Assembly: GCA_023143145.1 (NCBI GenBank)
Contig: JAGLID010000045.1
Coordinates: forward strand, 1-39,626
Direction of reading: 5' to 3'
DNA: 39,626 bases
Origin: Minisyncoccota bacterium
GTDB lineage: Bacteria; Patescibacteriota; Minisyncoccia; JAHIHE01; JAGLIN01
In this document: positions 4,293-27,176 of the stretch, one piece after another
Position numbering within the stretch: position 1 is the stretch's first letter
How the letters are laid out: the number at the start of each line of letters is the position of its first letter
Program-made: the position numbers and the translations under genes
Notes under the pieces: model-generated
Databases searched by the model: none
The model's input: the letters and a program-made list of their open reading frames with translations, nothing else
Told to the model about the DNA's origin: nothing

Positions 4293-5477
4293 TTATAATG
4301 ACAAACTATTTTCCTTACAAATCTCCGCATAATCATATGCACTTTGACGGATTTTTGCTTCAAACCCATTCTCACAATCAATTTCAATAAGTCCAAATCT
4401 TTTTGCAAAACCGCTATCCCATTCAAAATTATCAAGTAGCGACCAATACATATATCCCTTCACATCCACACCATCTCCAATTGCTTTGTGCATCCACTTC
4501 AAATGTTCCCTGATAAACTCAGGCCTCTTCTTGTCGCTGGCATCAGCAACTCCATTTTCAGTAATATATATCGGCTTATTGTATTTCTTCATATCTTTTA
4601 AGATAAAATATAACCCTCTCGGAAAAATTTCCCAATTCATATCTGAAACCTTTTTATTCTCATTATCTATTTTTATAAAAGGAAAAGAAAAAGGAGTAAT
4701 CCTGATTCTGTTATGAAAATAATAATTAATTCCGATAAAATCAGAATGCTTATTTATAAGTTTTGAAAAAATATGATTTGTTAAGAAATCCGAAATTTTT
4801 ACTAAGCTCTTGTTTATAAAAGATTTCGGATTATGTGCATCTGAATAACAATAGTTCTGTGCTGTTCCTACTTTTGCATTTGGATTAATACTGTGTATCA
4901 TATTATAAGCTTTTTTGTGAACTCTAACGAAATTGACAAAGACTATTAAAGCGAGAAGTGATTTCTTTTTTTGTGGTGGAAATCTGCCCTCAATATAGCC
5001 AAGGGAGAGATAGACCATTGGTTCATTTACTGTGACCCAAAAATCCACAAGATCATCAAGCTCTTCTACGACAAACTTGGTAAAATTTTCAAAATATTCG
5101 GGGAATTTTTTATTATGTAAACCACCCCTTTCAGACAACCACAGTGGCAATGTATAATGCCAGATAGTTACCATTGATTTTATTTTTCTTTTCCTGAGCG
5201 CTAGTAATATTTTGCGATAATGTTCAATTTCTTTTCGATCAAATTTCCCTTCACTAGGTTGAATGCGTGACCATTCCAAAGAAAGTCGATGAACATTATG
5301 ATTCAACTCTTTTGCTAAATCAAAATATTTTTCATATTGATTATAGTAATCACAGGCATTTCCGGCTGGAAATCTTTCTGACCAATTACAATTTTCAATT
5401 CCACCCTCAACCTGATACGAAGAAACAGCCGCACCCCACAAAAAATCTTTTGGAAATTTTAGAACTTTTTTTGACAT
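4293..5477 (-). CDS. Glycoside hydrolase family 1 (beta-glucosidase-like)
   Basis: FPKDFLWGAAVSSYQVEG, TVNEP, YITENG and WSLLDNFEW GH1 motifs. Confidence 0.95.
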   Translation of the reverse strand: MSKKVLKFPKDFLWGAAVSSYQVEGGIENCNWSERFPAGNACDYYNQYEKYFDLAKELNHNVHRLSLEWSRIQPSEGKFDRKEIEHYRKILLALRKRKIKSMVTIWHYTLPLWLSERGGLHNKKFPEYFENFTKFVVEELDDLVDFWVTVNEPMVYLSLGYIEGRFPPQKKKSLLALIVFVNFVRVHKKAYNMIHSINPNAKVGTAQNYCYSDAHNPKSFINKSLVKISDFLTNHIFSKLINKHSDFIGINYYFHNRIRITPFSFPFIKIDNENKKVSDMNWEIFPRGLYFILKDMKKYNKPIYITENGVADASDKKRPEFIREHLKWMHKAIGDGVDVKGYMYWSLLDNFEWDSGFAKRFGLIEIDCENGFEAKIRQSAYDYAEICKENSLSL

Positions 5478-8495: not shown

Positions 8496-10292
8496 CTAAA
8501 TTTTCTTCAATTTAACTCCCAGTTCATCCAGTTGCTCTTTTCTAACTGCGCTTGGACTATCCATCATCAAATCTCTTCCTTTCCCATCTTTTGGAAAGGC
8601 ATAGATGTCGCGAATCGAATCATAATCACAAAGAGTCATCAAAATTCGATCTACTCCAGGAGCACAACCACCATGAGGAGGTGCACCAAATTTCAAAGCC
8701 TTAATCATTCCGCCAAATTTAGCATCCACTTCTTCTTTCGTATATCCAGCAATTTCAAAAGCCTTATACATAATTTTTGGTTTATGATTTCTAATTCCGC
8801 CACTCAAACATTCAAATCCATTCAAAGATATATCAAATTGATTATTGATAATTTCAAGTGGGTCTTTTGATTCAAGTTCCTCAATCCCACCTCTGGGCAT
8901 TGAAAATGGATTATGTTCAAAATCAATTCGACCCTCTTCAATCTCAGAATAGGCAAACATTGGAAAATCAACTATCCAGCACCAAGCAGCCTTTGAATTA
9001 TCCTTAAGCCCAAGTCTTGTGGCACATTCATTTCGCACAGAACCCAAAGCCGAACAAACTGTTTTCCACTTATCTGCACCGAAAAATATAATATCACCAG
9101 AAACTGCTTCAACTTCGCTGGCAATCTCTTTCGTTAAATCATCACCAAGAAATTTCACAATTGGAGACTGAAATTCTCCACCTTCTTTGACAATAATATA
9201 TGCCAATCCTTTTGCCCCTTTTTCCTTGGCAATTTCCGTCAGCTCATCAATTTCTTTTCGAGAAAATTTTGCACCTCCGTCAATTTTCAAAGCATGAACT
9301 GCGCCGCCCTTTTCGACTGTGTCAGAAAAAACACTAAACCCACAACCTTTTATCAAATCTGAAATTGGTTTGATTTCCAAGTCAAAACGTAAATCTGGTT
9401 TGTCCGAGCCATATCTTTCTAATGCTTCTCTCCATGGAATTCTTTGGAAGCTTTTATCCTCATTAAGTGCAACAATTTTCTTTTTACTAAATTTTTCAGT
9501 GATTTCAACAAACAAAGGTTCCATAATCTCAAAAATATCATCTTGCTCCACAAAACTCATTTCCATATCAATCTGATAGAATTCTCCATAGGCCCTATCC
9601 ATTCGTGGATCTTCATCACGAAAACAAGGTGCAATCTGAAAATATTTATCAAGTCCTCCAACCATCAGAAGTTGTTTGAATTGTTGAGGAGCTTGAGGAA
9701 GAGCATAAAACTTTCCTGGGTGAATCCTAGAAGGAATCAAAAAGTCTCTTGCTCCCTCTGGAGAAGAATTGGCCAAAATTGGTGTTTGAACTTCAATAAA
9801 ATCTCTCGTTTGAAAATAATTTCTTACATGTTGAAATAATTGATCTTTAATCTTTAACATTTCCTGCATTTTCTTTCTACGTAAATCAAGAAATCTATAT
9901 TCCAAACGAATTAACTCATTCGCCTCCTGGCCTTTTTCATCATTAATTTCAAAAGGAGGAGTCTCTGATTCCGACAAGACTTCAATTTCATCCGCCTCAA
10001 CTTCGATCTCGCCAGTTCCAAGTTTTGAATTGATCATACCATTAGGTCTTGAAATTACCGTTCCTGTAATTCTGATCACATATTCGGTTCGAATTTTGTC
10101 AGCAGTTTCCCACGCCGATTTTGACACCTCTGGATCAAATGTAATTTGAGTAATTCCATATCGGTCACGCAAATCGATAAAAATCAATCCACCGTGATCT
10201 CTTCTGGAATTCACCCATCCCGATAAAATAACTTCTTGATTTTCTTCTTTTTTTGATAACACTCCGCAAGTATGAGTTCTATATTGTTGCAT
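8496..10292 (-). CDS. aspS: Aspartate--tRNA(Asp/Asn) ligase, non-discriminating type
   Basis: YRTHTCG, RRDHGG (His typical of ND-AspRS), ALPQAPQQFKQLLM, CFRDED and GAPPHGG. Confidence 0.97.
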   Translation of the reverse strand: MQQYRTHTCGVLSKKEENQEVILSGWVNSRRDHGGLIFIDLRDRYGITQITFDPEVSKSAWETADKIRTEYVIRITGTVISRPNGMINSKLGTGEIEVEADEIEVLSESETPPFEINDEKGQEANELIRLEYRFLDLRRKKMQEMLKIKDQLFQHVRNYFQTRDFIEVQTPILANSSPEGARDFLIPSRIHPGKFYALPQAPQQFKQLLMVGGLDKYFQIAPCFRDEDPRMDRAYGEFYQIDMEMSFVEQDDIFEIMEPLFVEITEKFSKKKIVALNEDKSFQRIPWREALERYGSDKPDLRFDLEIKPISDLIKGCGFSVFSDTVEKGGAVHALKIDGGAKFSRKEIDELTEIAKEKGAKGLAYIIVKEGGEFQSPIVKFLGDDLTKEIASEVEAVSGDIIFFGADKWKTVCSALGSVRNECATRLGLKDNSKAAWCWIVDFPMFAYSEIEEGRIDFEHNPFSMPRGGIEELESKDPLEIINNQFDISLNGFECLSGGIRNHKPKIMYKAFEIAGYTKEEVDAKFGGMIKALKFGAPPHGGCAPGVDRILMTLCDYDSIRDIYAFPKDGKGRDLMMDSPSAVRKEQLDELGVKLKKI

Positions 10293-10327: not shown

Positions 10328-10375
10328 CATTTTAGAAACCTAGCTCCGAAGCTTCGGAGCTAAGTTCCTAAAATG
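10328..10375. repeat. REP-like palindrome
   Basis: Perfect 22-bp palindrome TAGCTCCGAAGCTTCGGAGCTA (10341-10362) extended by 13-bp imperfect arms. Confidence 0.7.
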
Positions 10376-10382
10376 TTCATAT

Positions 10383-10445
10383 AACAAAAACTCCGTTCTT
10401 ATTTAATAAGTGAAAAACAAACTCATTAAATAAGAGCGAAGTTTT
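10383..10445 (-). terminator. Leader terminator/attenuator upstream of aspS
   Basis: 25-bp stem (10445-10421 with 10411-10387; 2 G-U pairs, 1 mismatch) ending in TTTTTGTT; lies between the promoter and aspS. Confidence 0.7.
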
Positions 10446-10536: not shown

Positions 10537-10626
10537 AGAAAAACACACAGCCTACATCTTTTCAACGTATCTATCCCTGATAAACTCAATCCATTTATAA
10601 TCACGATCATTATTGATTTAAGTAAA

Positions 10627-10665
10627 TAAAAAAAGAAGCAGAGCCTATATTGGCTAGGCTACTGC
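10627..10665 (-). terminator. Terminator after the multiheme gene
   Basis: GCAG-TAGCCTA...TAGGCT-CTGC hairpin followed by TTCTTTTTTT. Confidence 0.6.
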
Positions 10666-10671
10666 ATTTGT

Positions 10672-11271
10672 TTAGTGGCAAATTCTACACTCACCACTAT
10701 GTTCTCCTCCAGGTCCCTTTCCTGGATTGTCATCATGATGAGATCCATGACAATCATCACAATTTTTATGAAGACTTGTTCCGTGACAAGCTCCACAGTT
10801 TTCCTGATGTATTCCAGAATATCTACTATGGCAAACTATACAACTCCTTTCAGTCGGAGCTGGACTCCCTTTATGGCAAAAAGGATTTATACAGCTGTAT
10901 TCATCAAGAATATCTTTATTATGATGAATCTCTTTTCCATCATGACAGTATTGACATTCATTATGAATGTTTCTGTTCGCTCCGTGACAATCCTCACATT
11001 CACTATGAATGCTTTTTCTACTTCCATGACAATCATCACAATCTTCGTGAAGGCTCGCTATGTGGCAATCTAGGCAATCCTTCTCCATATTATGAGGATT
11101 ACCAACGTCATCTTTGCCAGATTCAACATTACTGCCACTGTTTCCAGTGTCATCAGAACCACTAGGTCCAGGTCCTCTGGAATCACCTTTGCCAGCATCA
11201 ACCGAAACTATGGCAGTCAAGACCAATGACATTAGCACTAGACAAACAATCATTTTTCTATTCATACCCAT
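10672..11271 (-). CDS. Secreted multiheme cytochrome c-like protein
   Basis: Signal peptide; 8 CxxCH plus CINPFCH; extra His just before most motifs; G/P/S-rich linker. Confidence 0.8.
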   Translation of the reverse strand: MGMNRKMIVCLVLMSLVLTAIVSVDAGKGDSRGPGPSGSDDTGNSGSNVESGKDDVGNPHNMEKDCLDCHIASLHEDCDDCHGSRKSIHSECEDCHGANRNIHNECQYCHDGKEIHHNKDILDEYSCINPFCHKGSPAPTERSCIVCHSRYSGIHQENCGACHGTSLHKNCDDCHGSHHDDNPGKGPGGEHSGECRICH

Positions 11272-11426
11272 ATCCTCTTTTTAGAGTATTTCTTAAAAGA
11301 AATACTCTTTTGAAATCTGAAATTTAATTTATAAAATAATTATAACCTAAATTCCAATTAAACAACATCTAAGTTGGTATAATAGTTAAACCTAATCTTA
11401 ATTATTACATCAATAACATAGATGTT

Positions 11427-13172
11427 CTACATTTTTTTCAATGTATCTATCCCTAATAGATCTAATCCATTCTTTATCGTAATCGCGACCGATTTTGATA
11501 AATAAATTCTAGCTTTAGCAACCTGCATCTCTGATTTTATAATAGGTGTAGAACTATAGAAATTATTATACAAAGAAGCAAGTTCGTAAATATACAAAGC
11601 AATCAAATGCGGTAAATTTTCACGAGCAGCATTTTCAATAGCTTCCGGAAATTTAATTAATTGCCTTAAAATATCTTTTTCCATATCCTCTTTAAGCAAA
11701 CCAAAATCCGGCTTATCCAGAATATTGATTCTGTTTAATCTGTAAGCTCTATTATATTTTTCAACCAATGAATTTATTCTCGCATAAGTGTATTGCAAAT
11801 ACGGTGCGCTATTCCCTTCAAAAGAAAGCATTTTATCCCAGTTAAAAGCAATGTCTGTCAATCTATTCTGCGATAGATCATTATATTTTATAGCTCCAAG
11901 TCCTACAATTTTTGCAATCTTTTTTTTCTCCTTATTGCTTAGCTTGGGATTCTTTTCTTCCACGACTTTTTTTGCGATTTCAGTTGATTTTTTGATAAGC
12001 TCGTCAAGTTTCACCGTCTCCCCTTTTCTGGTTGAAAACTTTTTTCCTTCTTCTCCTAAAACCATACCGAATTTGATATGCTCAATTTGAGTATTTCTAC
12101 AAATACCCAATAATTCAAGCGAGGCGAATAATTTCTGAAAGTGCAATGCTTGTTCATTGGCAACTACATAAAGGATCTTCTTAGCTCGAAGTTTTTCTTC
12201 ACGATACTTTGCCGTCGCAATGTCAGTTGTCGTATAAAGATATGCTCCGTCTGTTTTTTTTATTAAAAATGCGGATAGATTATATTTATCAAGAGCGATA
12301 ACAATTGCCCCTTCGCTCTTTGTCGCAATTTTTCTCTCCAAGGCATCATTCACAACTCTTGAAAGCATTCCGTCATAAAAACTCTCGCCTAAAACATAAT
12401 CAAATTTTACACCTAAAGTTTTATATATCTTATTATAGTCTTTCAGACTTTCCTTAATTAGATATTTCCAAATCTTGATATTTTCGGTGTTTTTCTCTTG
12501 AAGCCTTTTTGTCTCATGTCTTGCAAACTCCTCAAGGTCCTTATTCTTCTCAACTTCTTTGTGAAATCTAACATAGAGTTTTGTCATCTCTTCAATGGGA
12601 TTTTTATCAATCTCTTTCTTGTTTCCCCAATGTTTATACGCGTAAATTAATTTTCCAAATTGAGTCCCCCAATCTCCGATGTGATTGTCACCGATAACCT
12701 TATAACCCAAAAAATTATAAATATTATAAAGTGATTGTCCAATTATAGTTGAACGCAAATGTCCAATATGCATCGGTTTGGCAATGTTCGGAGCTGAATA
12801 GTCAATGACAACAACTTTTTCTTTCCCAATTTCTGATGAACCAAACCTATCTTTCTTTCTCAAAACTTTGCACAAGTTTTGCCTAAGCCGTTTGTCGGAA
12901 ATTTCAAAATTTATAAAACCCGGATTTGCAATCGTAACTCCGCTGAAAATCTCTTTATACTCTGCAATCGTATCAATCTTATTTCTAATTTTCTCCGCAA
13001 TTTCCATCGGATTTTGATTCAACTTCCCCGCCGAAACCATCGCCACATTTGAAGCATAATCCCCGCGCCCCTTCTGTTTTGGCCACTCCACCACAAAATT
13101 AGGAATTTCTATATCCTGATATAAATCCTTTATTGCTTTATTTATAATTTCCTTTATTTCTTTATTTAGCAT
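11427..13172 (-). CDS. argS: Arginine--tRNA ligase
   Basis: GDYASN, DYSAPNIAKPMHIGHLRS, GDWGTQFG, FSTRKG and YLQYTYARI. Confidence 0.98.
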   Translation of the reverse strand: MLNKEIKEIINKAIKDLYQDIEIPNFVVEWPKQKGRGDYASNVAMVSAGKLNQNPMEIAEKIRNKIDTIAEYKEIFSGVTIANPGFINFEISDKRLRQNLCKVLRKKDRFGSSEIGKEKVVVIDYSAPNIAKPMHIGHLRSTIIGQSLYNIYNFLGYKVIGDNHIGDWGTQFGKLIYAYKHWGNKKEIDKNPIEEMTKLYVRFHKEVEKNKDLEEFARHETKRLQEKNTENIKIWKYLIKESLKDYNKIYKTLGVKFDYVLGESFYDGMLSRVVNDALERKIATKSEGAIVIALDKYNLSAFLIKKTDGAYLYTTTDIATAKYREEKLRAKKILYVVANEQALHFQKLFASLELLGICRNTQIEHIKFGMVLGEEGKKFSTRKGETVKLDELIKKSTEIAKKVVEEKNPKLSNKEKKKIAKIVGLGAIKYNDLSQNRLTDIAFNWDKMLSFEGNSAPYLQYTYARINSLVEKYNRAYRLNRINILDKPDFGLLKEDMEKDILRQLIKFPEAIENAARENLPHLIALYIYELASLYNNFYSSTPIIKSEMQVAKARIYLSKSVAITIKNGLDLLGIDTLKKM

Positions 13173-19036: not shown

Positions 19037-19606
19037 TTAATTAATTATCACAAAATTTGCAATATTCTTGTCCGTGATATCTTTATCGGTCCAAACTAAA
19101 AGCATTTTATCTTTGACAATATCATTTAGTGTAGCTTCAACCATTACTCCGTCTTCATTTTTGAGTATTTTTATTCCAACTGGAATAATAATTTTTTCTT
19201 CTCCTGTACTCATACTTTTCAACATTTCTAACCTTGCGTCAACATCATCATCAGTAGTATTTAATTGAGTACCTCCCATGCCCATGCCCATACCCATGCC
19301 ACCACCCGCACCTGATGATGGTCTTTTCTCTTTCTCATCATCTATATCTTCAACGCTTTCACTTTCTTCAAGTCCATTGTTTTCACCAGACATTTGTCTT
19401 TCAATCTCTAAAATCGTTACTTCATTACCAATAATAGTTTTTACAATCCCCGAGAGATTTGCCTTTTCTTCAGGCTTTTCAAATCCAGCAAATCTACTAT
19501 TCTCTGATGTTTGATTATTCTCATTTTGCTTATTACTATTTTGCCATAGATACCCTAATAAAACAGAAACGAATAACAGACTTATTATTGCTATAACTTT
19601 TTTCAT
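19037..19606 (-). CDS. Secreted/anchored hypothetical protein of the efflux operon
   Basis: Signal/TM segment, GIVKTIIGNEVTI, and a GGGMGMGMGMG tract. Confidence 0.75.
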   Translation of the reverse strand: MKKVIAIISLLFVSVLLGYLWQNSNKQNENNQTSENSRFAGFEKPEEKANLSGIVKTIIGNEVTILEIERQMSGENNGLEESESVEDIDDEKEKRPSSGAGGGMGMGMGMGGTQLNTTDDDVDARLEMLKSMSTGEEKIIIPVGIKILKNEDGVMVEATLNDIVKDKMLLVWTDKDITDKNIANFVIIN

Positions 19607-19646
19607 AATAGTTTTTTATTAAATTATTATTTTTTATACTCTGATT

Positions 19647-20201
19647 TTATATTTTAAACATTTTTTTAAAATATGCCCAGTGCCAGAAAGTATGAAATAT
19701 TGAAATTACAAACATCGCGATGCCGATTTCAACATGCCAAAATAAAGTGTTAAATGGCAAAGAAATTGTTATACCAAAATTAATTTCTATAATCAATAAA
19801 ATCCCCAACAAACCGGAAATTAAAAAAGTAATTAGCAGTAAAAAATTCCAGATCTTTCTGTGATTGATAATACTGATAATTTTTTTCTTAGATAAAATAT
19901 GAGTAATAAAATATATCAAAATTAAAAACAACGAAATTGGTATGAGATGATAATTTGTTTCAGATTGCTTATTATTTATTATTAAATCTTTATCTTCTAT
20001 TTGAGTATTTATTATTTCAGTATTCCTGTCTTCTGGTGCGGGCTGGGAATGGTCGCATATTTCATCGCCGTCTGTATCAATATATCTATTGCAATCTCCA
20101 GGATAAGGAGAATTAACCTCGCCATAAGGACAATTATCCCAAGCCAAAACCGTTGTTGGAATTGAAATTATCAAAAGTAAAGCAAAAATTATTTTTTTCA
20201 T
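19647..20201 (-). CDS. Membrane protein with a Cys-containing external domain and DUF4405-like C-terminal TMs
   Basis: CPYG...[12 protein letters not shown]; SGLLG...WHVEIGI...IFHTFWHW. Confidence 0.7.
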
Positions 20202-20617
20202 ATTGCATTTTGATTTTTTGTTTCTTCCGCGAGATCTTTAATTATCGCTGGAGAAAATTTATATTCCGCGTCTCTTATTTCTTCCAAAATTGTCTCAACA
20301 GTGTAATTCCCCTGCAAATCAAATTCAGCTATAATTTCTAACAAAAGAACATCCGCATTAATTTCCCAAAGATCAGCCACTTTTTGCACAGTCAAAGCTT
20401 TCATCGCGCTTCCTTCAATTTCCATAAAATGATCATGCTCATGTTCTTCGTCGTCTTCATGTTCTTCATGCTTTTCGTTCTCAGAAATAATCTCTTTTGC
20501 CGTATCCTCTTCAGATATATTTTTCTGCGTTGCCAGTTCTATCGTTGAACACTCAATAGTATATCCCACAATTACGCCTAAAACAATAGCAATTATTATT
20601 AAAATTATTTTTTTCAT
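20198..20617 (-). CDS. Anchored protein with a His/acidic tract
   Basis: N-terminal TM; [14 protein letters not shown]; 4-nt overlap with the next gene. Confidence 0.75.
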
Positions 20618-20692
20618 ATAATATTTATATATTTTTTATACTGTAACCAAATAAAGAAGAGGTGCCTCTCCTTTTTCGGCTTTAGCTAATTA

Positions 20693-20906
20693 TTACAAAT
20701 TATCGCAACTACCATCACTATTAGCATTAATAAATTCCCCGCCTTTATTTTGTCCCTTGTTTTCAGCGCTCATTTTTCCACTTCGTTCTCCGTCAACGTT
20801 GTTCTGTCCTTTATATTTAGCTCCAACTTTTTCGCCATTACTAGTTCTCAGACCAAGTTCTTTTCTAATTGCGTCCGCACTGACAACATCTCTTGCTTGA
20901 CCTAAA
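20693..20906 (-). pseudogene. 5'-truncated gene remnant
   Basis: DAIRKELGL...GQNKGGEFINANSDGSCDNL reads like a C-terminus; the track's start codon comes from the adjacent hairpin element. Confidence 0.55.
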
Positions 20907-21054
20907 TTGTAAATAAATATCATTTCATAATTTCGCCAAAATGTGTGCCAGATGTGCTTTTAAAAAGATGAGGAGTAGAATACTATGCTGAAGCTTTTTT
21001 AAAACGCAGATAACGCACAAACCAGATGAAATTTGAAAGGTTATTTATCTACAA
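20907..21054. mobile_element. ~148-bp MITE/REP-like inverted-repeat element
   Basis: Ends TTGTAAATAAATATCATTTCATAATTTC and reverse complement TTGTAGATAAATAACCTTTCAAATTTC; imperfect pairing continues inward. Confidence 0.6.
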
Positions 21055-21134
21055 CGACTTAGTGCTTATATATATTATTACAAATGAAATTCAAATTTAT
21101 TTCATTATTTATTTTTCCACTTCGAAAAATAGCA

Positions 21135-21158
21135 AAAAACCCGCTTAATTAAAGCAAG
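21135..21158 (-). terminator. Intrinsic terminator
   Basis: CTTGCTT-TAATT-AAGCGGG followed by TTTTTT. Confidence 0.6.
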
Positions 21159-21242
21159 TTCTATTTATTGCAAGGATTGGTTTGCAATCTAGCAGGAATG
21201 AGTCTGTAACTCGTTTCTTGTCAGGAACTTGTTTTGTAATTT

Positions 21243-21764
21243 TTATAAAATTCTATAAATACAACGAGTTCTTCCAACATACCAAACTTCTTTGAAATAA
21301 TTTTTACAGGAACTCCAGCCAATATCTTTAGTCGCATCTATTGGAAAATCTCCCATTTGATCATCAAAAAGTAAAAAAATATTATTCATTTCTTTCTCAT
21401 CTTTTCCTTGTTTTTTATACTTTTCTATTTTTGCATTAAGGGCTTTTAAGACCGGTCTCATATCATGTCGGTCTCGTATACTAAATGGTATAGATTCATT
21501 CCGTGTATTAAGTGGTGTAGATTCATAATATTTTTTCGATATTTGAGTTTGAAAACATCCGGTTTTTATATAATCTGCAACCGTAACTTGAATTTTTAGT
21601 TTCTTTCCATTTTTAAAATTAACAAAAACATCAACTACATCTTGTATTTCATTTGGTTTGATTTTAGCATCTTTTTCTCTTTCATTATTTTCCTGACAAT
21701 AATATGACAAAAAACGCTTTACGCAATTTTTTTCTTCTTTCTCTTGGATTTCGCTTCCCTTCAT
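21243..21764 (-). CDS. Hypothetical protein, possible PD-(D/E)xK-fold nuclease
   Basis: EE helix, then VDV...KIQVT, K..KY and LLFDD, a pattern resembling divergent restriction-endonuclease folds. Confidence 0.55.
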   Translation of the reverse strand: MKGSEIQEKEEKNCVKRFLSYYCQENNEREKDAKIKPNEIQDVVDVFVNFKNGKKLKIQVTVADYIKTGCFQTQISKKYYESTPLNTRNESIPFSIRDRHDMRPVLKALNAKIEKYKKQGKDEKEMNNIFLLFDDQMGDFPIDATKDIGWSSCKNYFKEVWYVGRTRCIYRIL

Positions 21765-21788
21765 AAATTTTTCTTATTTTTTTATTCA

Positions 21789-22985
21789 CTATTCCAATAT
21801 TATACCTGTTATATAAGATTCCCGATCAAAACTATTTATTTCATAGATAGAATCTGCATCAAAACCTAATTTTTTCAAAACGCTATTATTTTTTATCAGT
21901 CGTTTTTGCCCAAAATCTCCCTGCGGATATAATCTGTAGATTTTATCATCACCCACGGCACGAACTAATTCAGATGTTTTAAAAGAATTAAGTGTTGATT
22001 GACCTACATTCATCACATCTTCCCATTTTAAATGACCGTAGTTATTGAAAATAGAAGGATTTAGAATTAGTCGTTTGAATTTTTTTGAACCGACATATTT
22101 AACAATGTAAATATCATTATTATTTGCTGTTTTAATTAGAGCTCCTTCGGAAATTTCAATGATTATAGGGATGGCACTTTTAACATTAGAACTTGATTTT
22201 ACTACATCGGGATACCTTTCCTTAGTAATTTGAGCGAATGTCTTCTTGCGATTAGCAGGATCAAGTGTAAGAGATTTAATAACACTATAATCAGCAATCT
22301 CTTTATATTCAGGCATTTCATCTAGTGTTCTATAAAATTCTTTGCTGAACAAAATATTGATTCTGATCATTTTTTCAATAGATGCTTCTGTGCACACTTC
22401 TTTATCTATATCAAATTTACTACCAATTCCTCTTTTTTCTTCGCAATATTCATTCATTTTTATTTGAACATAAACATCTTGTCCGACATCTAATAAAAGT
22501 TTATCATCTTCACTTAGACTAGATTCAAATCTGTCTTTAATAATTTTATCTAGACATGATTGGTAATTTTCTTCAGCTATTTCAGAAAGATTGATACCAG
22601 ATCTGCAAGAGTCCAGCTCAATCTGATTGAGTGTTGAGCAATCATCACTGATTAAATTTCCCATACTTTTTCTAAAACTACAATTAGCTCTTATTTCATT
22701 TACATAATCTAATTTTCTCTGATAGTCTGATTCTTCTCTACAAATTAAAGGCAAGTCATCAACCAAAAAAGATGAACAAGAATTAAATTTACACTCTTCC
22801 GCATCTGTAAAATTAACCGAACTATTAACCCAGCCGTCATTACAAACAACTTTCCCATAAGAAGAAATGCTATTACAATTAACTCCGCCATAATAAGAAC
22901 AAGCGCCACTGGTTGCGTCAGCGGAAAGTGGAATTATAAATAACAAAGAAAATGCAAAGAAAATAAATTTATTTAGATATTTCAT
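21789..22985 (-). CDS. Secreted Cys-rich protein with a CPR-type C-terminal repeat domain
   Basis: Signal peptide; GACSYYGGVNC...VCNDGW; C-terminal GALIKT...DIYIV...KRLI repeated as LVRA...KIYRL...KRLI. Confidence 0.8.
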   Translation of the reverse strand: MKYLNKFIFFAFSLLFIIPLSADATSGACSYYGGVNCNSISSYGKVVCNDGWVNSSVNFTDAEECKFNSCSSFLVDDLPLICREESDYQRKLDYVNEIRANCSFRKSMGNLISDDCSTLNQIELDSCRSGINLSEIAEENYQSCLDKIIKDRFESSLSEDDKLLLDVGQDVYVQIKMNEYCEEKRGIGSKFDIDKEVCTEASIEKMIRINILFSKEFYRTLDEMPEYKEIADYSVIKSLTLDPANRKKTFAQITKERYPDVVKSSSNVKSAIPIIIEISEGALIKTANNNDIYIVKYVGSKKFKRLILNPSIFNNYGHLKWEDVMNVGQSTLNSFKTSELVRAVGDDKIYRLYPQGDFGQKRLIKNNSVLKKLGFDADSIYEINSFDRESYITGIILE

Positions 22986-24299: not shown

Positions 24300-25862
24300 C
24301 TACACCCCCAAAAAAGCATCCATATTCAGCTTCGCATCTCCCGGAATAAGTGGATCATATCCTCCATCAATCTCATCTCCATCAGTGAATCCATCTCCAT
24401 CAGTATCAGGATTATTTATATCAGTTTTGAACATCAACTCCATATCATCGGTCAAACCATCACCATCAGAATCCACTGAACTCGACAAACTACTACTCAT
24501 AGCGCTTTTCATTAAAACCATTAGTAAATTTTCATAATCTTTCGGCTTCTCTATATTAAGCGGTTGATTAAATTCAGACATATTTAATTCAATATTTATA
24601 CTAAAAGAAAATGTGTCTTCGCGAGAATTTACAGAATTATTACTAGAAAGACCCTCAATTTCATCTATCCTTCTTTCCAGATTTTTTAGAGAATCCTCGT
24701 TCATTTCTAAATGAATCTTTACTTTATAAATAAAATTATCATCCTTGCCTATCCACATCTCAATTTTTACTTCATTCGAAAAATCTTTTATTATCTCCCT
24801 ATATTCAGGATTTTCTTCAAATTTATCAATCGCCTCGTCAAAGTCATTCATTAAACCCATAGAAGAAATTTCTCCCTGTTCTTGCATCAACAAGCCCTCT
24901 CTAATAAGTTCAATGTACAAATCGATCAGAGCGTTACTGTCCGCTTCAACACTATAATGGTAGACATCAACATTTCCTAATTTTTCATCCCCTAGATCAC
25001 TTTTAAAATTGAAAAGGTCATACTTTTCATAAATACCCTTGATGTCCAATTTATTTTCTTTCGAACTGTCTATGACATCAAATATCTCTGAGCTCAGAAT
25101 GCCCATATCTTTCAAATCCTTCATTCTTAATTCATACCACTTATTCTTATAAGAATCCAATTGAACCTCTGGGATTGACTCCAATAATTCAGAATCTAAA
25201 TTCTTCAGGTTCATATATATTTCGGCTTCTTCGCCTTTGCCAAAACTCATTACACCTAAATCCAAAAAGAATGAAGTTCTTTCTTGATCAATATCAACTT
25301 CACTATCTATGCCAAAATCATAAGATGCTTTTGGAATGTTTACATCACTTCCATCTTCACTTCCACTAACACTCACTTTGATTGAATTCTCTGAGATCTC
25401 ACCTTTAAAATTCACATCAAATCTCCCATCGAAGTTATACGAGCTAACACCACTCATCGCTTCAAGAGAAGACTTTATAATTTGTTGAGAATGGCTTATA
25501 TCTTCTTTTTTAAAAACATCTTCTTTTTTATTAAAAAAGAAATAATACGCGGCAAATCCAGATGCTGCTATTAAAAAAATAAAACCCATAATAAATAATC
25601 CTAGGTCTTTTTTCTTTTTTTTGACAGAAGGAAAAGTACTCTCTATCTTATTTGAAAATGTTTTTTTCTCAATACCATCTAACTCTGCGTTAATATTGTT
25701 TGAAATATTTTTAGCTATATTGTTTTCAATTCCCTCTTCAGTATTTTTAATATTATTAACAGGACCTTCACTATTTGTATCGTCTGAAGCAATTACTTCT
25801 AATCCTTCAGGATTCGTATTTGTTTCTTCTTTATTTTTGATTTTCTCATTTTCGTTTTCCAT
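24300..25862 (-). CDS. Membrane-anchored surface protein with C-terminal DxDGDG Ca-binding repeats
   Basis: Low-complexity N-terminus, one TM, a beta-rich LppX/LolA-like region, then DSDGDGLTD...NPDTDGDGFTDG; start likely MENENE. Confidence 0.8.
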   Translation of the reverse strand: MENENEKIKNKEETNTNPEGLEVIASDDTNSEGPVNNIKNTEEGIENNIAKNISNNINAELDGIEKKTFSNKIESTFPSVKKKKKDLGLFIMGFIFLIAASGFAAYYFFFNKKEDVFKKEDISHSQQIIKSSLEAMSGVSSYNFDGRFDVNFKGEISENSIKVSVSGSEDGSDVNIPKASYDFGIDSEVDIDQERTSFFLDLGVMSFGKGEEAEIYMNLKNLDSELLESIPEVQLDSYKNKWYELRMKDLKDMGILSSEIFDVIDSSKENKLDIKGIYEKYDLFNFKSDLGDEKLGNVDVYHYSVEADSNALIDLYIELIREGLLMQEQGEISSMGLMNDFDEAIDKFEENPEYREIIKDFSNEVKIEMWIGKDDNFIYKVKIHLEMNEDSLKNLERRIDEIEGLSSNNSVNSREDTFSFSINIELNMSEFNQPLNIEKPKDYENLLMVLMKSAMSSSLSSSVDSDGDGLTDDMELMFKTDINNPDTDGDGFTDGDEIDGGYDPLIPGDAKLNMDAFLGV

Positions 25863-26048
25863 TTTTTTAAAATTAACATTTTTTATTATTAAAACAAAAG
25901 AATATTCATAGTTTAATGATAAAGGCCACACCGCTAGAGATTAACCAGACTCAGCTAAAACAGATAAATATGTTATAAACAACCAAATTATCTGCTACTT
26001 TGCATAATTACAACCATTGTCAATATTATACCACAAAAAAGGAAATCC

Positions 26049-27176
26049 TCAAATTCCTTCTTCTTTCAATTTTTCAAATAATTTTTTTTGACTCTTAGAA
26101 AGTCTTTCTGGTATCACAACCCGAACAACAATGAACATATCTCCCTTTCCTCTTCCTTGAAGATGAGTAATTCCTTTTTCGTTTAATTTAATTATCTTTC
26201 CGCTCTGAATGCCTGAAGGAATTTTCAATTTGACCTCATCTTGTAGGGTTGGAATATTCACCTTGTCTCCGAGCACGGCTTGCGAAATAGATATCTGTAA
26301 ATTATATATAATGTCATCGCCTTTTCTTTCGAAGAAAGAATGCTGTTTTACACGCACTGTAATATATAAATCACCAGCAACTGAATTTCTTTTTCCAGGA
26401 CGAAAACCGACTTCACCTTGACCCGACAAACGAATTGTCTGTCCGTCAGCAATTCCTGCGGGAATTTTAACTTTGATAGTTTTATTTTGCTTCGTCTTTC
26501 CATCGCCTCCACAAACCGAACATTTTTTATCAAATGTTTCTCCTAAACCCTTACAATCTGGACATATTTCATTCTGAGCAAAAGTTCCCAGAATGGTTCG
26601 TCTTTGTTTCGTCACTTGACCACTTCCGCTACAGGTTTTACAAGACTCAACTTTACTGCCCTTTTCTGCTCCGCTTCCATCGCAAGATGAACATAAAATT
26701 GAAATATATATATTTATATCTTTTTCAGTTTCGACTACCGCCTCTTCAAGAGTAATTTCAATATCAACAGATATATCATTTCCCTTTCCTTGATTCTGGC
26801 TTTGATCTCTTCCCTTACCTCCAAAAATATCGCCAAAAATATCGCCAAATCCTCCACCATCTCCACCATCTCCACCAAATTCAAAATTAAATCCATTCTG
26901 ACCACCTCCTTGAAAACCAGAAAAATCAAAACCTCCAAATCCTTGCCCTCCACCTGCCCCAGCCTGATCAAATCCTGAACCAAATTGATCATATTGACCT
27001 CTTTTTTGTTTATCAGAAAGCACTTGATAGGCTTCATTTATTTCCTTAAACTTCACCTCATCTCCTCCTTTTTTATCTGGATGATGTTTGTGAGCCGCCT
27101 TTCGAAAAGCCTTCTTGATTTCATCATCACTTGCATCTTTGGAAACTCCTAAAAGTTTATAATAATCTTTTGCCAT
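26049..27176 (-). CDS. dnaJ: Chaperone DnaJ
   Basis: J domain with HPD, G/F-rich region, four CxxCxGxG repeats. Confidence 0.98.
   Translation of the reverse strand: MAKDYYKLLGVSKDASDDEIKKAFRKAAHKHHPDKKGGDEVKFKEINEAYQVLSDKQKRGQYDQFGSGFDQAGAGGGQGFGGFDFSGFQGGGQNGFNFEFGGDGGDGGGFGDIFGDIFGGKGRDQSQNQGKGNDISVDIEITLEEAVVETEKDINIYISILCSSCDGSGAEKGSKVESCKTCSGSGQVTKQRRTILGTFAQNEICPDCKGLGETFDKKCSVCGGDGKTKQNKTIKVKIPAGIADGQTIRLSGQGEVGFRPGKRNSVAGDLYITVRVKQHSFFERKGDDIIYNLQISISQAVLGDKVNIPTLQDEVKLKIPSGIQSGKIIKLNEKGITHLQGRGKGDMFIVVRVVIPERLSKSQKKLFEKLKEEGI

Follow-up and report, generated by a model that had tools for sequence, protein, structure and literature searches.

Whether, and how, Patescibacteria load haem c is a wider puzzle on which a single small gene touches. 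The Patescibacteria, or candidate phyla radiation (CPR), are generally portrayed as fermenters that lack haem and respiratory chains. The gene lies at positions 10672-11271, on the reverse strand, of contig JAGLID010000045.1 from a Minisyncoccota bacterium (assembly GCA_023143145.1), and its open frame runs for 199 codons from an ATG at 11271 to a stop codon at 10672-10674. The stretch analysed here, hereafter the window, is this entire 39.6-kb contig (39,626 nucleotides), one of 168 contigs in a genome of 1.28 Mb that is 92.21% complete and 3.94% contaminated. The gene is real, lineage-specific and the property of a CPR bacterium of cold-seep sediment. Its product, an acidic protein of about 19 kDa, we tentatively read, at a little under an even chance, as an extracellular haem-binding, cytochrome-c-like protein acting outside any respiratory chain; we infer haem binding, covalent attachment and the role of the protein from sequence.

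Every structural point of an initial annotation made from the DNA was found again on inspection: the open reading frame (ORF), a signal peptide, a linker, eight CxxCH motifs plus one Cx4CH, an end on CRICH, a spacing of about 15 residues, and a Shine-Dalgarno (SD) sequence and terminator belonging to the gene itself. In the numbering of the 199-residue frame, the CxxCH motifs start at residues 66, 78, 92, 106, 144, 159, 171 and 195, the last of them being the C-terminal CRICH, and the variant site, CINPFCH, starts at residue 127; the nine motifs are thus contained within 134 residues, at 14.9 residues per motif. The mature protein has 18 Cys, every one of them inside a motif, and 20 His, of which nine belong to motifs and 11 are spare, each unit supplying two Cys, one proximal His and at least one spare His. 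The spare His that had been described just ahead of most motifs are also there: a His stands three to four residues before six of the nine motifs (seven, if a His six residues ahead of the first motif is counted), and the 11 non-motif His could provide distal axial ligands for the nine sites, as in class III cytochromes. Such an array is far from what composition would give. Shuffled 200,000 times, the 142-residue domain averaged 0.30 CxxCH, with at most 4 and never eight, and the Cys (1.0%) and His (1.4%) frequencies of the genome predict 0.0002 CxxCH in 140 residues. Among the 4,497 stop-to-stop frames of at least 60 residues in the genome, 4,473 have no CxxCH, 23 have one, and only this ORF has more; a scan that took in frames of at least 50 residues likewise gave no second multi-CxxCH protein, and therefore no partner of the NapC/NrfH type.

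Several observations point to haem. A His follows directly after the second Cys at all nine sites, the protein has an export signal, and the spare His number roughly one to a site. The non-trivial neighbours found by sequence or by protein language model are all cytochromes of c3, c7 or c554 type: the ten best language-model neighbours belong to c7/c3 families (score 0.87-0.90) and include no zinc finger, and the best sequence match among solved structures is cytochrome c554 (E 0.017, 18.3 bits). When 1.84 billion cluster representatives, which cover about 15 billion proteins, were searched exhaustively with HMMER, the matches were a twin of the protein, two low-complexity repeat proteins (P0003 and P0004) that were rejected as relatives, and P0005. 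The latter, of 289 residues, matches with E 7e-4 library-wide and 9e-10 in pairwise BLASTP, aligns through the H...CxxCH pattern and is itself placed by Pfam in Cytochrom_CIII/C7, the class III/c7 cytochromes; the family link that it provides is weak and transitive. With 16% hydrophobic and 3% aromatic residues, the repeat domain is probably unable to fold alone, and a featureless AlphaFold2 model fits this expectation; if so, cofactors must organise the domain, for which nine C-x2(4)-C-H sites and eleven extra His are at hand.

The closest known proteins are the class III cytochromes c3 and c7 (PF02085, PF14522, PF14537, PF09699), which are likewise Sec-exported, small and acidic with little hydrophobic core, and which show clustered CxxCH with an occasional Cx4CH, a variant typical of the class, together with about one spare His per site for bis-His ligation. 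A c3-like protein of a class-mate, discussed below, reaches a locally similar density (4 sites in 46 residues). Unlike them, the present protein has no significant match to a hidden Markov model (HMM), sustains its density over the whole array with a regular, tandem-duplicated period of 14 residues, and belongs to a host without maturation system, haem synthesis or redox partners. As both the profile match and the maturation system that mark class III are missing, it would best be described as a variant of class III and not as a member. The alignment with cytochrome c554 of Nitrosomonas (PDB 1bvb/1ft5) rests on three CxxCH sites and their neighbouring His; that cytochrome, however, carries 4 haems in 211 residues around a real protein core, and a shared fold is unsupported, the AlphaFold2 model being unusable for the comparison.

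The same residues could instead bind a metal directly. In a haem-free protein the 14-residue H-x2-C-x2-C-H units would be Cys2His2 (or paired Cys4) sites for Zn, Ni, Cu, Co or Fe, serving to buffer or sequester metals in the pore water of the seep, which is sulfidic and metal-rich, or forming an extracellular thiol-redox or chaperone-type zinc-finger array. We judge this somewhat unlikely, though it requires no machinery that is missing from the genome, each unit offers exactly two Cys and about two His, and the thioredoxin-fold/CcdA proteins of the host could hold exported thiols reduced. There are also weak, motif-level matches to DnaJ (Pfam DnaJ_CXXCXGXG, E 0.24; PDB 1exk, E 0.31; the DnaJ encoded in the window, pairwise E 0.033). 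The DnaJ zinc finger, or CR domain (PF00684, four CxxCxGxG; PDB 1exk), is similar in the spacing of its CxxC knuckles, about 14-17 residues apart (15.2 residues per CxxC), in its low hydrophobicity (18%) and in often reading CxxCHG, the form taken by four of the nine sites here and found also in the E. coli DnaJ alignment. What a metal site leaves unexplained, however, is the invariant Cys-His dipeptide, with His directly after the second Cys at 9/9 sites: adjacent Cys and His rarely ligate the same non-haem metal, and the pair is the defining geometry of haem c. Neither is CxxCxGxG present, as the second Gly is missing at all nine sites and the profile gives 12.1 bits against a cut-off of 32.7, over a match that spans residues 66-98 only. 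Unlike DnaJ, moreover, the protein is exported and not cytoplasmic, has no J or DnaJ_C domain match and carries 11 spare His, whereas the zinc finger of the window's own DnaJ has none; the repeat occurs in no known secreted family in Pfam, NCBIfam or the HMMER library search, and no zinc finger accompanies the cytochromes among the ten best language-model neighbours. Derivation of the array from the window's DnaJ zinc finger (26049-27176) was considered and rejected, identity in the pairwise alignment being limited to the motifs.

The reading as a haem-binding, cytochrome-c-like protein has a good deal weighing against it in turn, beginning with the protein itself. No Pfam family is significant and NCBIfam returns nothing; the best cytochrome profile, Cytochrome_C7 (PF14522), reaches E 1.1 and 9.6 bits against a cut-off of 24.8, with PF02085, PF14537, PF09699 and PF13447 also considered. 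Of 256 features, the language-model neighbours have only 147 in common with the protein, as many as chance or distant matches would have. AlphaFold2, run on the single sequence, gives no fold (mean predicted local distance difference test, pLDDT, 40.5; predicted template modelling score, pTM, 0.17), with confidence in the signal helix only; an Atlas model does no better (pTM 0.15), and the structures nearest to it, at template modelling (TM) scores of at most 0.38, are meaningless. The 14.9 residues per site sustained over nine sites compare with 19-30 in the multi-site comparators that were measured, the 16% of hydrophobic residues comes near the 18% of the DnaJ zinc finger, and the gene is confined to one species.

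The genome adds to this side of the balance. That maturation genes are missing, at first claimed for the window, extends to the 92.21%-complete genome: PF01578 (Cytochrom_C_asm: CcmC/CcmF/CcsA), PF05140 (ResB) and PF03100 (CcmE) are unmatched in it, as are ferrochelatase, ALAD, HemN_C/HemW and the FecCD importer, and a WWD-like motif occurs in no frame. None of 401 class genomes passes the Pfam cut-off for PF01578, a redox partner and a membrane anchor are both missing, and passages of PMC3601427 state that thioether formation is not spontaneous in cells under physiological conditions. In favour of haem, the genome does code for thioredoxin-fold/CcdA fusion proteins, which carry reducing power outwards; CcdA-type thiol exporters were dismissed as a specific lead to maturation, being present in 28 of the 31 genomes searched and unlinked to the gene. 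The genome likewise has no match to cytochrome bd or haem-copper oxidase, and the control genomes responded as expected in the profile searches for Ccm/Ccs, ferrochelatase, ALAD and oxidases. Because quinol dehydrogenase, cytochrome b, oxidase and haem importer are all lacking from it, a haem protein in this cell would presumably act outside a respiratory chain.

Two secreted thioredoxin-fold/CcdA (DsbD_TM) fusions of this genome (G000:C140:5525-6592 and G000:C20:956-1966) are 85% identical to each other, with paralogues on C121 and C90. These duplicate copies could be either true paralogues or a mixture of strains in the bin, given its 3.94% contamination.

How much the absence of a maturation system should count was addressed with a DNA pattern for three clustered CxxCH, run on 400 class-mates, for which a reversed-pattern control gave 0 hits. 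Besides the present gene the pattern found three other genomes (G056, G092 and G192). Two of these, G056 and G092, encode an HAO-like protein of 325 residues with 9 CxxCH (Pfam Multi-haem_cyto, E 5e-18), together with a NapC/NrfH-like tetrahaem protein and a cytochrome b (L102 = G056:C1:80032-83136; L103 = G092). The third, G192, encodes a class III (c3-like) cytochrome of 133 residues (E 2e-10) with 4 motifs in 46 residues (L105 = G192:C40:1454-4564). All three genomes are 94-100% complete, and none has a match to PF01578, PF05140 or ALAD. Since recognised multihaem genes occur in the class without known maturation or synthesis of haem, the absence of Ccm/Ccs is not disqualifying, and by this comparison we take it not to be decisive against haem. 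The initial annotation was right that Ccm/Ccs are lacking, and the lack is a weaker counter-argument than it had assumed, three class-mates with Pfam multihaem cytochromes being in the same position. Directly upstream of the c3-like gene of G192 (L105 592-1263) lies a gene for a 223-residue signal-peptide protein of no known family.

The loci of G056 and G092 resemble the multihaem cluster published for the parcubacterium 'Candidatus Parcunitrobacter nitroensis' (PMC5220378, in the parts covered here; Castelle et al., 2017), with its HAO-like nonahaem and NapC/NrfH tetrahaem proteins. The word 'maturation' is absent from the main text of that paper, whose supplementary tables, outside the scope covered, may list biogenesis genes. 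A CPR host and the same class-level group are common to those cytochromes and the present one. They belong, however, to recognised enzyme and quinol-dehydrogenase families in a respiratory cluster with cytochrome b, whereas the present protein is an orphan without partners, and its similarity to the proteins of G056 and G092 is at motif level only (BLASTP E 5e-4 over 65 residues).

Haem is the likeliest cofactor, and the protein would then take the following course. The apoprotein would leave the cell by the Sec route; outside, haem scavenged from a haem-rich, reducing seep community would be captured by bis-His ligation, a step that would need none of the haem synthesis or uptake families searched; and thioether bonds would then form uncatalysed, or by a route other than System I/II. 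Sulfidic seeps are reducing and probably rich in extracellular cytochromes. Passages of PMC3601427 document that, under reducing conditions, apocytochrome and ferrous haem can form thioether bonds uncatalysed. The loaded protein could serve as a sink for haem or iron, buffer redox conditions outside the cell, or connect with the cytochrome matrix of a partner. A bolder version can be imagined, although we hold it to be very unlikely: a CPR episymbiont of cold-seep consortia would secrete the most haem-dense cytochrome yet, with nine bis-His haems on about 140 residues in a peptide-threaded haem stack, loaded outside the cell with scavenged haem, cross-linked without Systems I, II or III, and tapping or adhering to its host's network of extracellular cytochromes; with its class-mates, it would then stand for an undescribed Patescibacteria route of c-type maturation.

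Either outcome would matter beyond this gene. Genes resembling those of c-type cytochromes recur in CPR class-mates, and in one published genome, without visible means of making or attaching haem, and the present one is the cleanest test case among them, a soluble, stand-alone protein of 19 kDa with native codons that consists of little other than attachment motifs. If it binds haem, then haem c would be possible without the three known maturation systems, or with haem scavenged outside the cell, and the least polypeptide that a haem requires would be set lower than before, a point of interest for the design of haem wires. Should Zn or another metal be bound instead, counting CxxCH as a proxy for extracellular electron transfer can give false positives; such counting is a standard metagenomic proxy (for example, see the passages covered of PMC6730927 and PMC5520028).

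The status of the gene as an orphan between aspS and argS with signals of its own, as first proposed, was upheld by the larger searches, which yielded only 99-100% twins and motif-level matches. A word search of 5.8 billion clusters had a 99% twin as its sole match. The gene is carried by none of the genomes of 60 relatives; a collection of genome contigs gave 15 pattern matches and 0 relatives, and the viral contigs and the phage records gave 0 matches each. Two loci on metagenome contigs proved on inspection to be unrelated high-GC frames and were discarded as spurious. The genome itself holds no paralogue and no further copy of the cassette described below. A dense CxxCH orphan in CPR is described in no paper that we found; PMC5220378, as far as covered, is the only report of CPR multihaem proteins that we found, and the passages covered of PMC11495043, PMC6730927 and PMC5520028 contain nothing on CPR cytochromes.

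The locus is non-chimeric and embedded in syntenic CPR DNA. Its neighbourhood consists of bacterial housekeeping genes (argS, aspS, a gene for a CYTH protein, gatB, uvrB and dnaJ), and the order argS-spacer-aspS(-CYTH)-gatB is common to genus and family. That the host is a CPR bacterium, as had been supposed, agrees with its closest AspRS sequences: among GTDB contigs with one genome per species, these come from metagenome-assembled genomes of the Patescibacteria group, Candidatus Paceibacterota and Candidatus Moraniibacteriota, at 88-70% identity, and the genomes of relatives by genome taxonomy measure 0.5-1.9 Mb. Support across the flanks, which the initial annotation had named beforehand as a check, was found in assemblies of other runs. 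The same protein is recorded on 8 database contigs, the longest of 125 kb and 106 kb, and the stretch is present, with its frame intact, in 5 runs from 2 studies, all labelled cold-seep metagenome and none of them listed as an RNA run. Contigs spanning aspS, the gene and argS (X2 record 1, X3 record 10 and X5 record 26, with 2-6 differences) come from three runs other than the possible source run of the window; because independent contigs of 2 studies bridge the region in this way, a chimeric join is excluded.

The comparison with relatives also bears on where the gene came from. The argS-aspS order is kept in the loci of seven relatives without such an ORF (from ORF lists for four and tblastn for all); in relatives the spacer between the two genes measures 247-1,104 bp, with no comparable ORF and no remnant of a proto-gene, and aligns with the window only over its last 80-170 nt, the aspS leader. 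On the far side of the gene lies a relic of the end of argS, at 10552-10627, which aligns with 11427-11507 at a local score of 59, whereas scores over 200 shuffles averaged 21.5 and never exceeded 34; it is absent from the spacers of 4/4 close relatives. Both copies of this bounding repeat bear the argS residues of this lineage (IYL... and GIDTLK, where relatives have VTL, IEM or IAL and GIDVL), and the duplication is therefore local. Direct repeats at the borders and absence from syntenic relatives make up a scar such as an insertion would leave. Neither foreign composition nor a donor homologue, the marks of an island gene, was found in the protein, genome, metagenome, viral or phage collections: GC content at third codon positions (GC3) is 0.245 in the gene against 0.26-0.32 in four neighbouring genes, and the choice of codons for Cys, His, Asp, Gly, Asn, Glu and Lys follows the genome. 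As read from these alignments, a cassette of about 0.8 kb, comprising leader, gene and terminator, arose in this lineage by local duplication or insertion at the 3' end of argS and was apparently not imported from a distant respiring donor. Within it, the array grew in place, by internal tandem duplication of the 14-residue H-x2-C-x2-C-H unit.

The suggestion of a horizontally acquired, wire-like cytochrome, taken as a recent transfer from a respiring donor, thus finds no support, given native GC3 and codons, the lack of a homologue and the growth of the array from its own unit. In its fullest form this would be a canonical cytochrome of respiration or extracellular electron transfer, recently transferred from a metal- or sulfate-reducing donor, with ccm/ccs hidden in the unassembled 8% of the genome. 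A genome in 168 contigs and 92.21% complete leaves room for such genes, the cassette is bounded by repeats, as after insertion, and the seep habitat is rich in metal- and sulfate-reducing donors. We nevertheless find it highly improbable, since besides the host-like GC3 and codon choice there is no homologue beyond motif-level matches in 1.84 billion representatives, both bounding repeats carry the lineage-specific argS residues of a local duplication, CcmF/CcsA occurs in 0/401 class genomes, and the genome has no cytochrome bd, haem-copper oxidase or other multi-CxxCH protein.

An alignment of the eight CxxCH units has C, C and H in every one of them (8/8), and every other column reaches at most 4/8. 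The units have diverged to about 63-80% DNA identity with all motif Cys and His retained, the invariant residues use both synonymous codons (TGT/TGC and CAT/CAC), and across runs the sole substitution inside the repeat domain is synonymous and falls in a motif Cys codon. Invariant residues with mixed codons and a synonymous substitution suggest selection on the motif C/C/H after the units were duplicated. The gene could otherwise be young, restricted to its species and without fixed role, a Cys/His unit amplified by replication slippage in an intergenic hotspot, its product tolerated or not made. This we think unlikely. Its presence in one species only (99-100% twins in two billion-scale searches, 0/60 relatives), the spacer that varies in length among relatives and is unalignable save for the aspS leader, and the tandem-repeat origin would all fit, and only two substitutions within the ORF separate the sampled populations, too few for a ratio of nonsynonymous to synonymous change (dN/dS) and for selection to be measured. 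Against a gene without role stand a full set of signals (SD at ideal distance, Sec signal, terminator) and native codon bias, the motif Cys and His kept throughout diverged units with synonymous codon differences, a frame intact in the contigs of 5 runs and 2 studies and in 8 database contigs, and a motif count that none of 200,000 shuffles of the same composition reproduced.

The features of the gene and its surroundings are collected in Table 1. The SD sequence stands 7 nt from the ATG of the third codon (11265) and only 1 nt from the first ATG (11271), and the gene calls in databases use the same third-codon start; because spacing and calls agree, the true product is most likely of 197 residues, starting at M3, rather than 199. 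As read from the sequence, the signal peptide has an n-region MNRK and a hydrophobic stretch of 18 residues, followed by VDA and the Gly at which cleavage is predicted. It is without a lipobox, a natural variant having Tyr in place of Cys10 (C10Y). The inverted repeat upstream of the SD could be either a hairpin of the 5' untranslated region or an operator.

Table 1. Features of the gene and of the cassette that contains it, in window coordinates; residues are numbered in the 199-residue frame.
Feature	Position	Strand	Basis and remarks
CDS, secreted Cys/His-repeat protein	10672..11265	-	197 aa from SD-supported ATG; database calls identical
Sec-type signal peptide, residues 3-25, predicted cleavage between VDA and G	11197..11265	-	Sequence; AlphaFold2 helix 5-25, pLDDT 83; C10Y variant
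Low-complexity Gly/Ser/Asp/Pro linker, residues 26-57	11101..11196	-	Sequence; pLDDT <50
Cys/His repeat domain, residues 58-199 (142 aa)	10675..11100	-	8 CxxCH + 1 Cx4CH + 11 spare His
42-bp (14-codon) tandem repeat, 2.1 copies, 80% matches	10954..11040	-	Repeat search; trace of unit amplification
Third, diverged copy of 42-bp repeat	10744-10792	-	Repeat search; 237 bp from tandem pair
Shine-Dalgarno sequence AAGAGGA	11273..11279	-	By reading; 7 nt upstream of ATG 11265
Perfect 12+12 nt inverted repeat, immediately upstream of SD	11283..11308	-	Single copy genome-wide
Candidate -10 box TATAAT	11344-11339	-	By-eye reading; unflagged by program scan for signals
Intrinsic-terminator-like hairpin, then T-run	10642..10660	-	12 nt past stop codon
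Decayed, frame-broken relic of last ~80 nt of argS, distal cassette boundary	10552..10627	-	Local alignment
Functional argS 3' end, proximal copy of cassette-bounding direct repeat	11427..11507	-	ORF list; local alignment

The flanking genes, argS (11427-13172) and aspS (8496-10292), are both on the reverse strand. In the leader of aspS a hairpin of 25+25 nt (10387-10445) has its sequence conserved in G001 and G004, and three more relatives (L014, L016 and L017) share it at DNA level; it matches no Rfam family at gathering score, and may be a leader or attenuator element of aspS in this family. A near-perfect, gapless palindrome of 48 nt (10328-10375) is inserted in the same leader, is absent from the spacers of relatives and has a single copy in its own genome. 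At this palindrome two runs show a spike in summed contig depth, which in X4 climbs to about 2,000, and the sequence or part of it may therefore recur in other members of the community. Elsewhere in the window, six consecutive or nearby ORFs of 139-543 residues (19037-22985 and 24300-25931) are unmatched in Pfam at a threshold of E 1e-5. Genes for GH5-like and GH1 glycoside hydrolases (1766-2818 and 4293-5477) lie beside those for CorA and EamA transporters, an ordinary sugar-scavenging kit for the clade.

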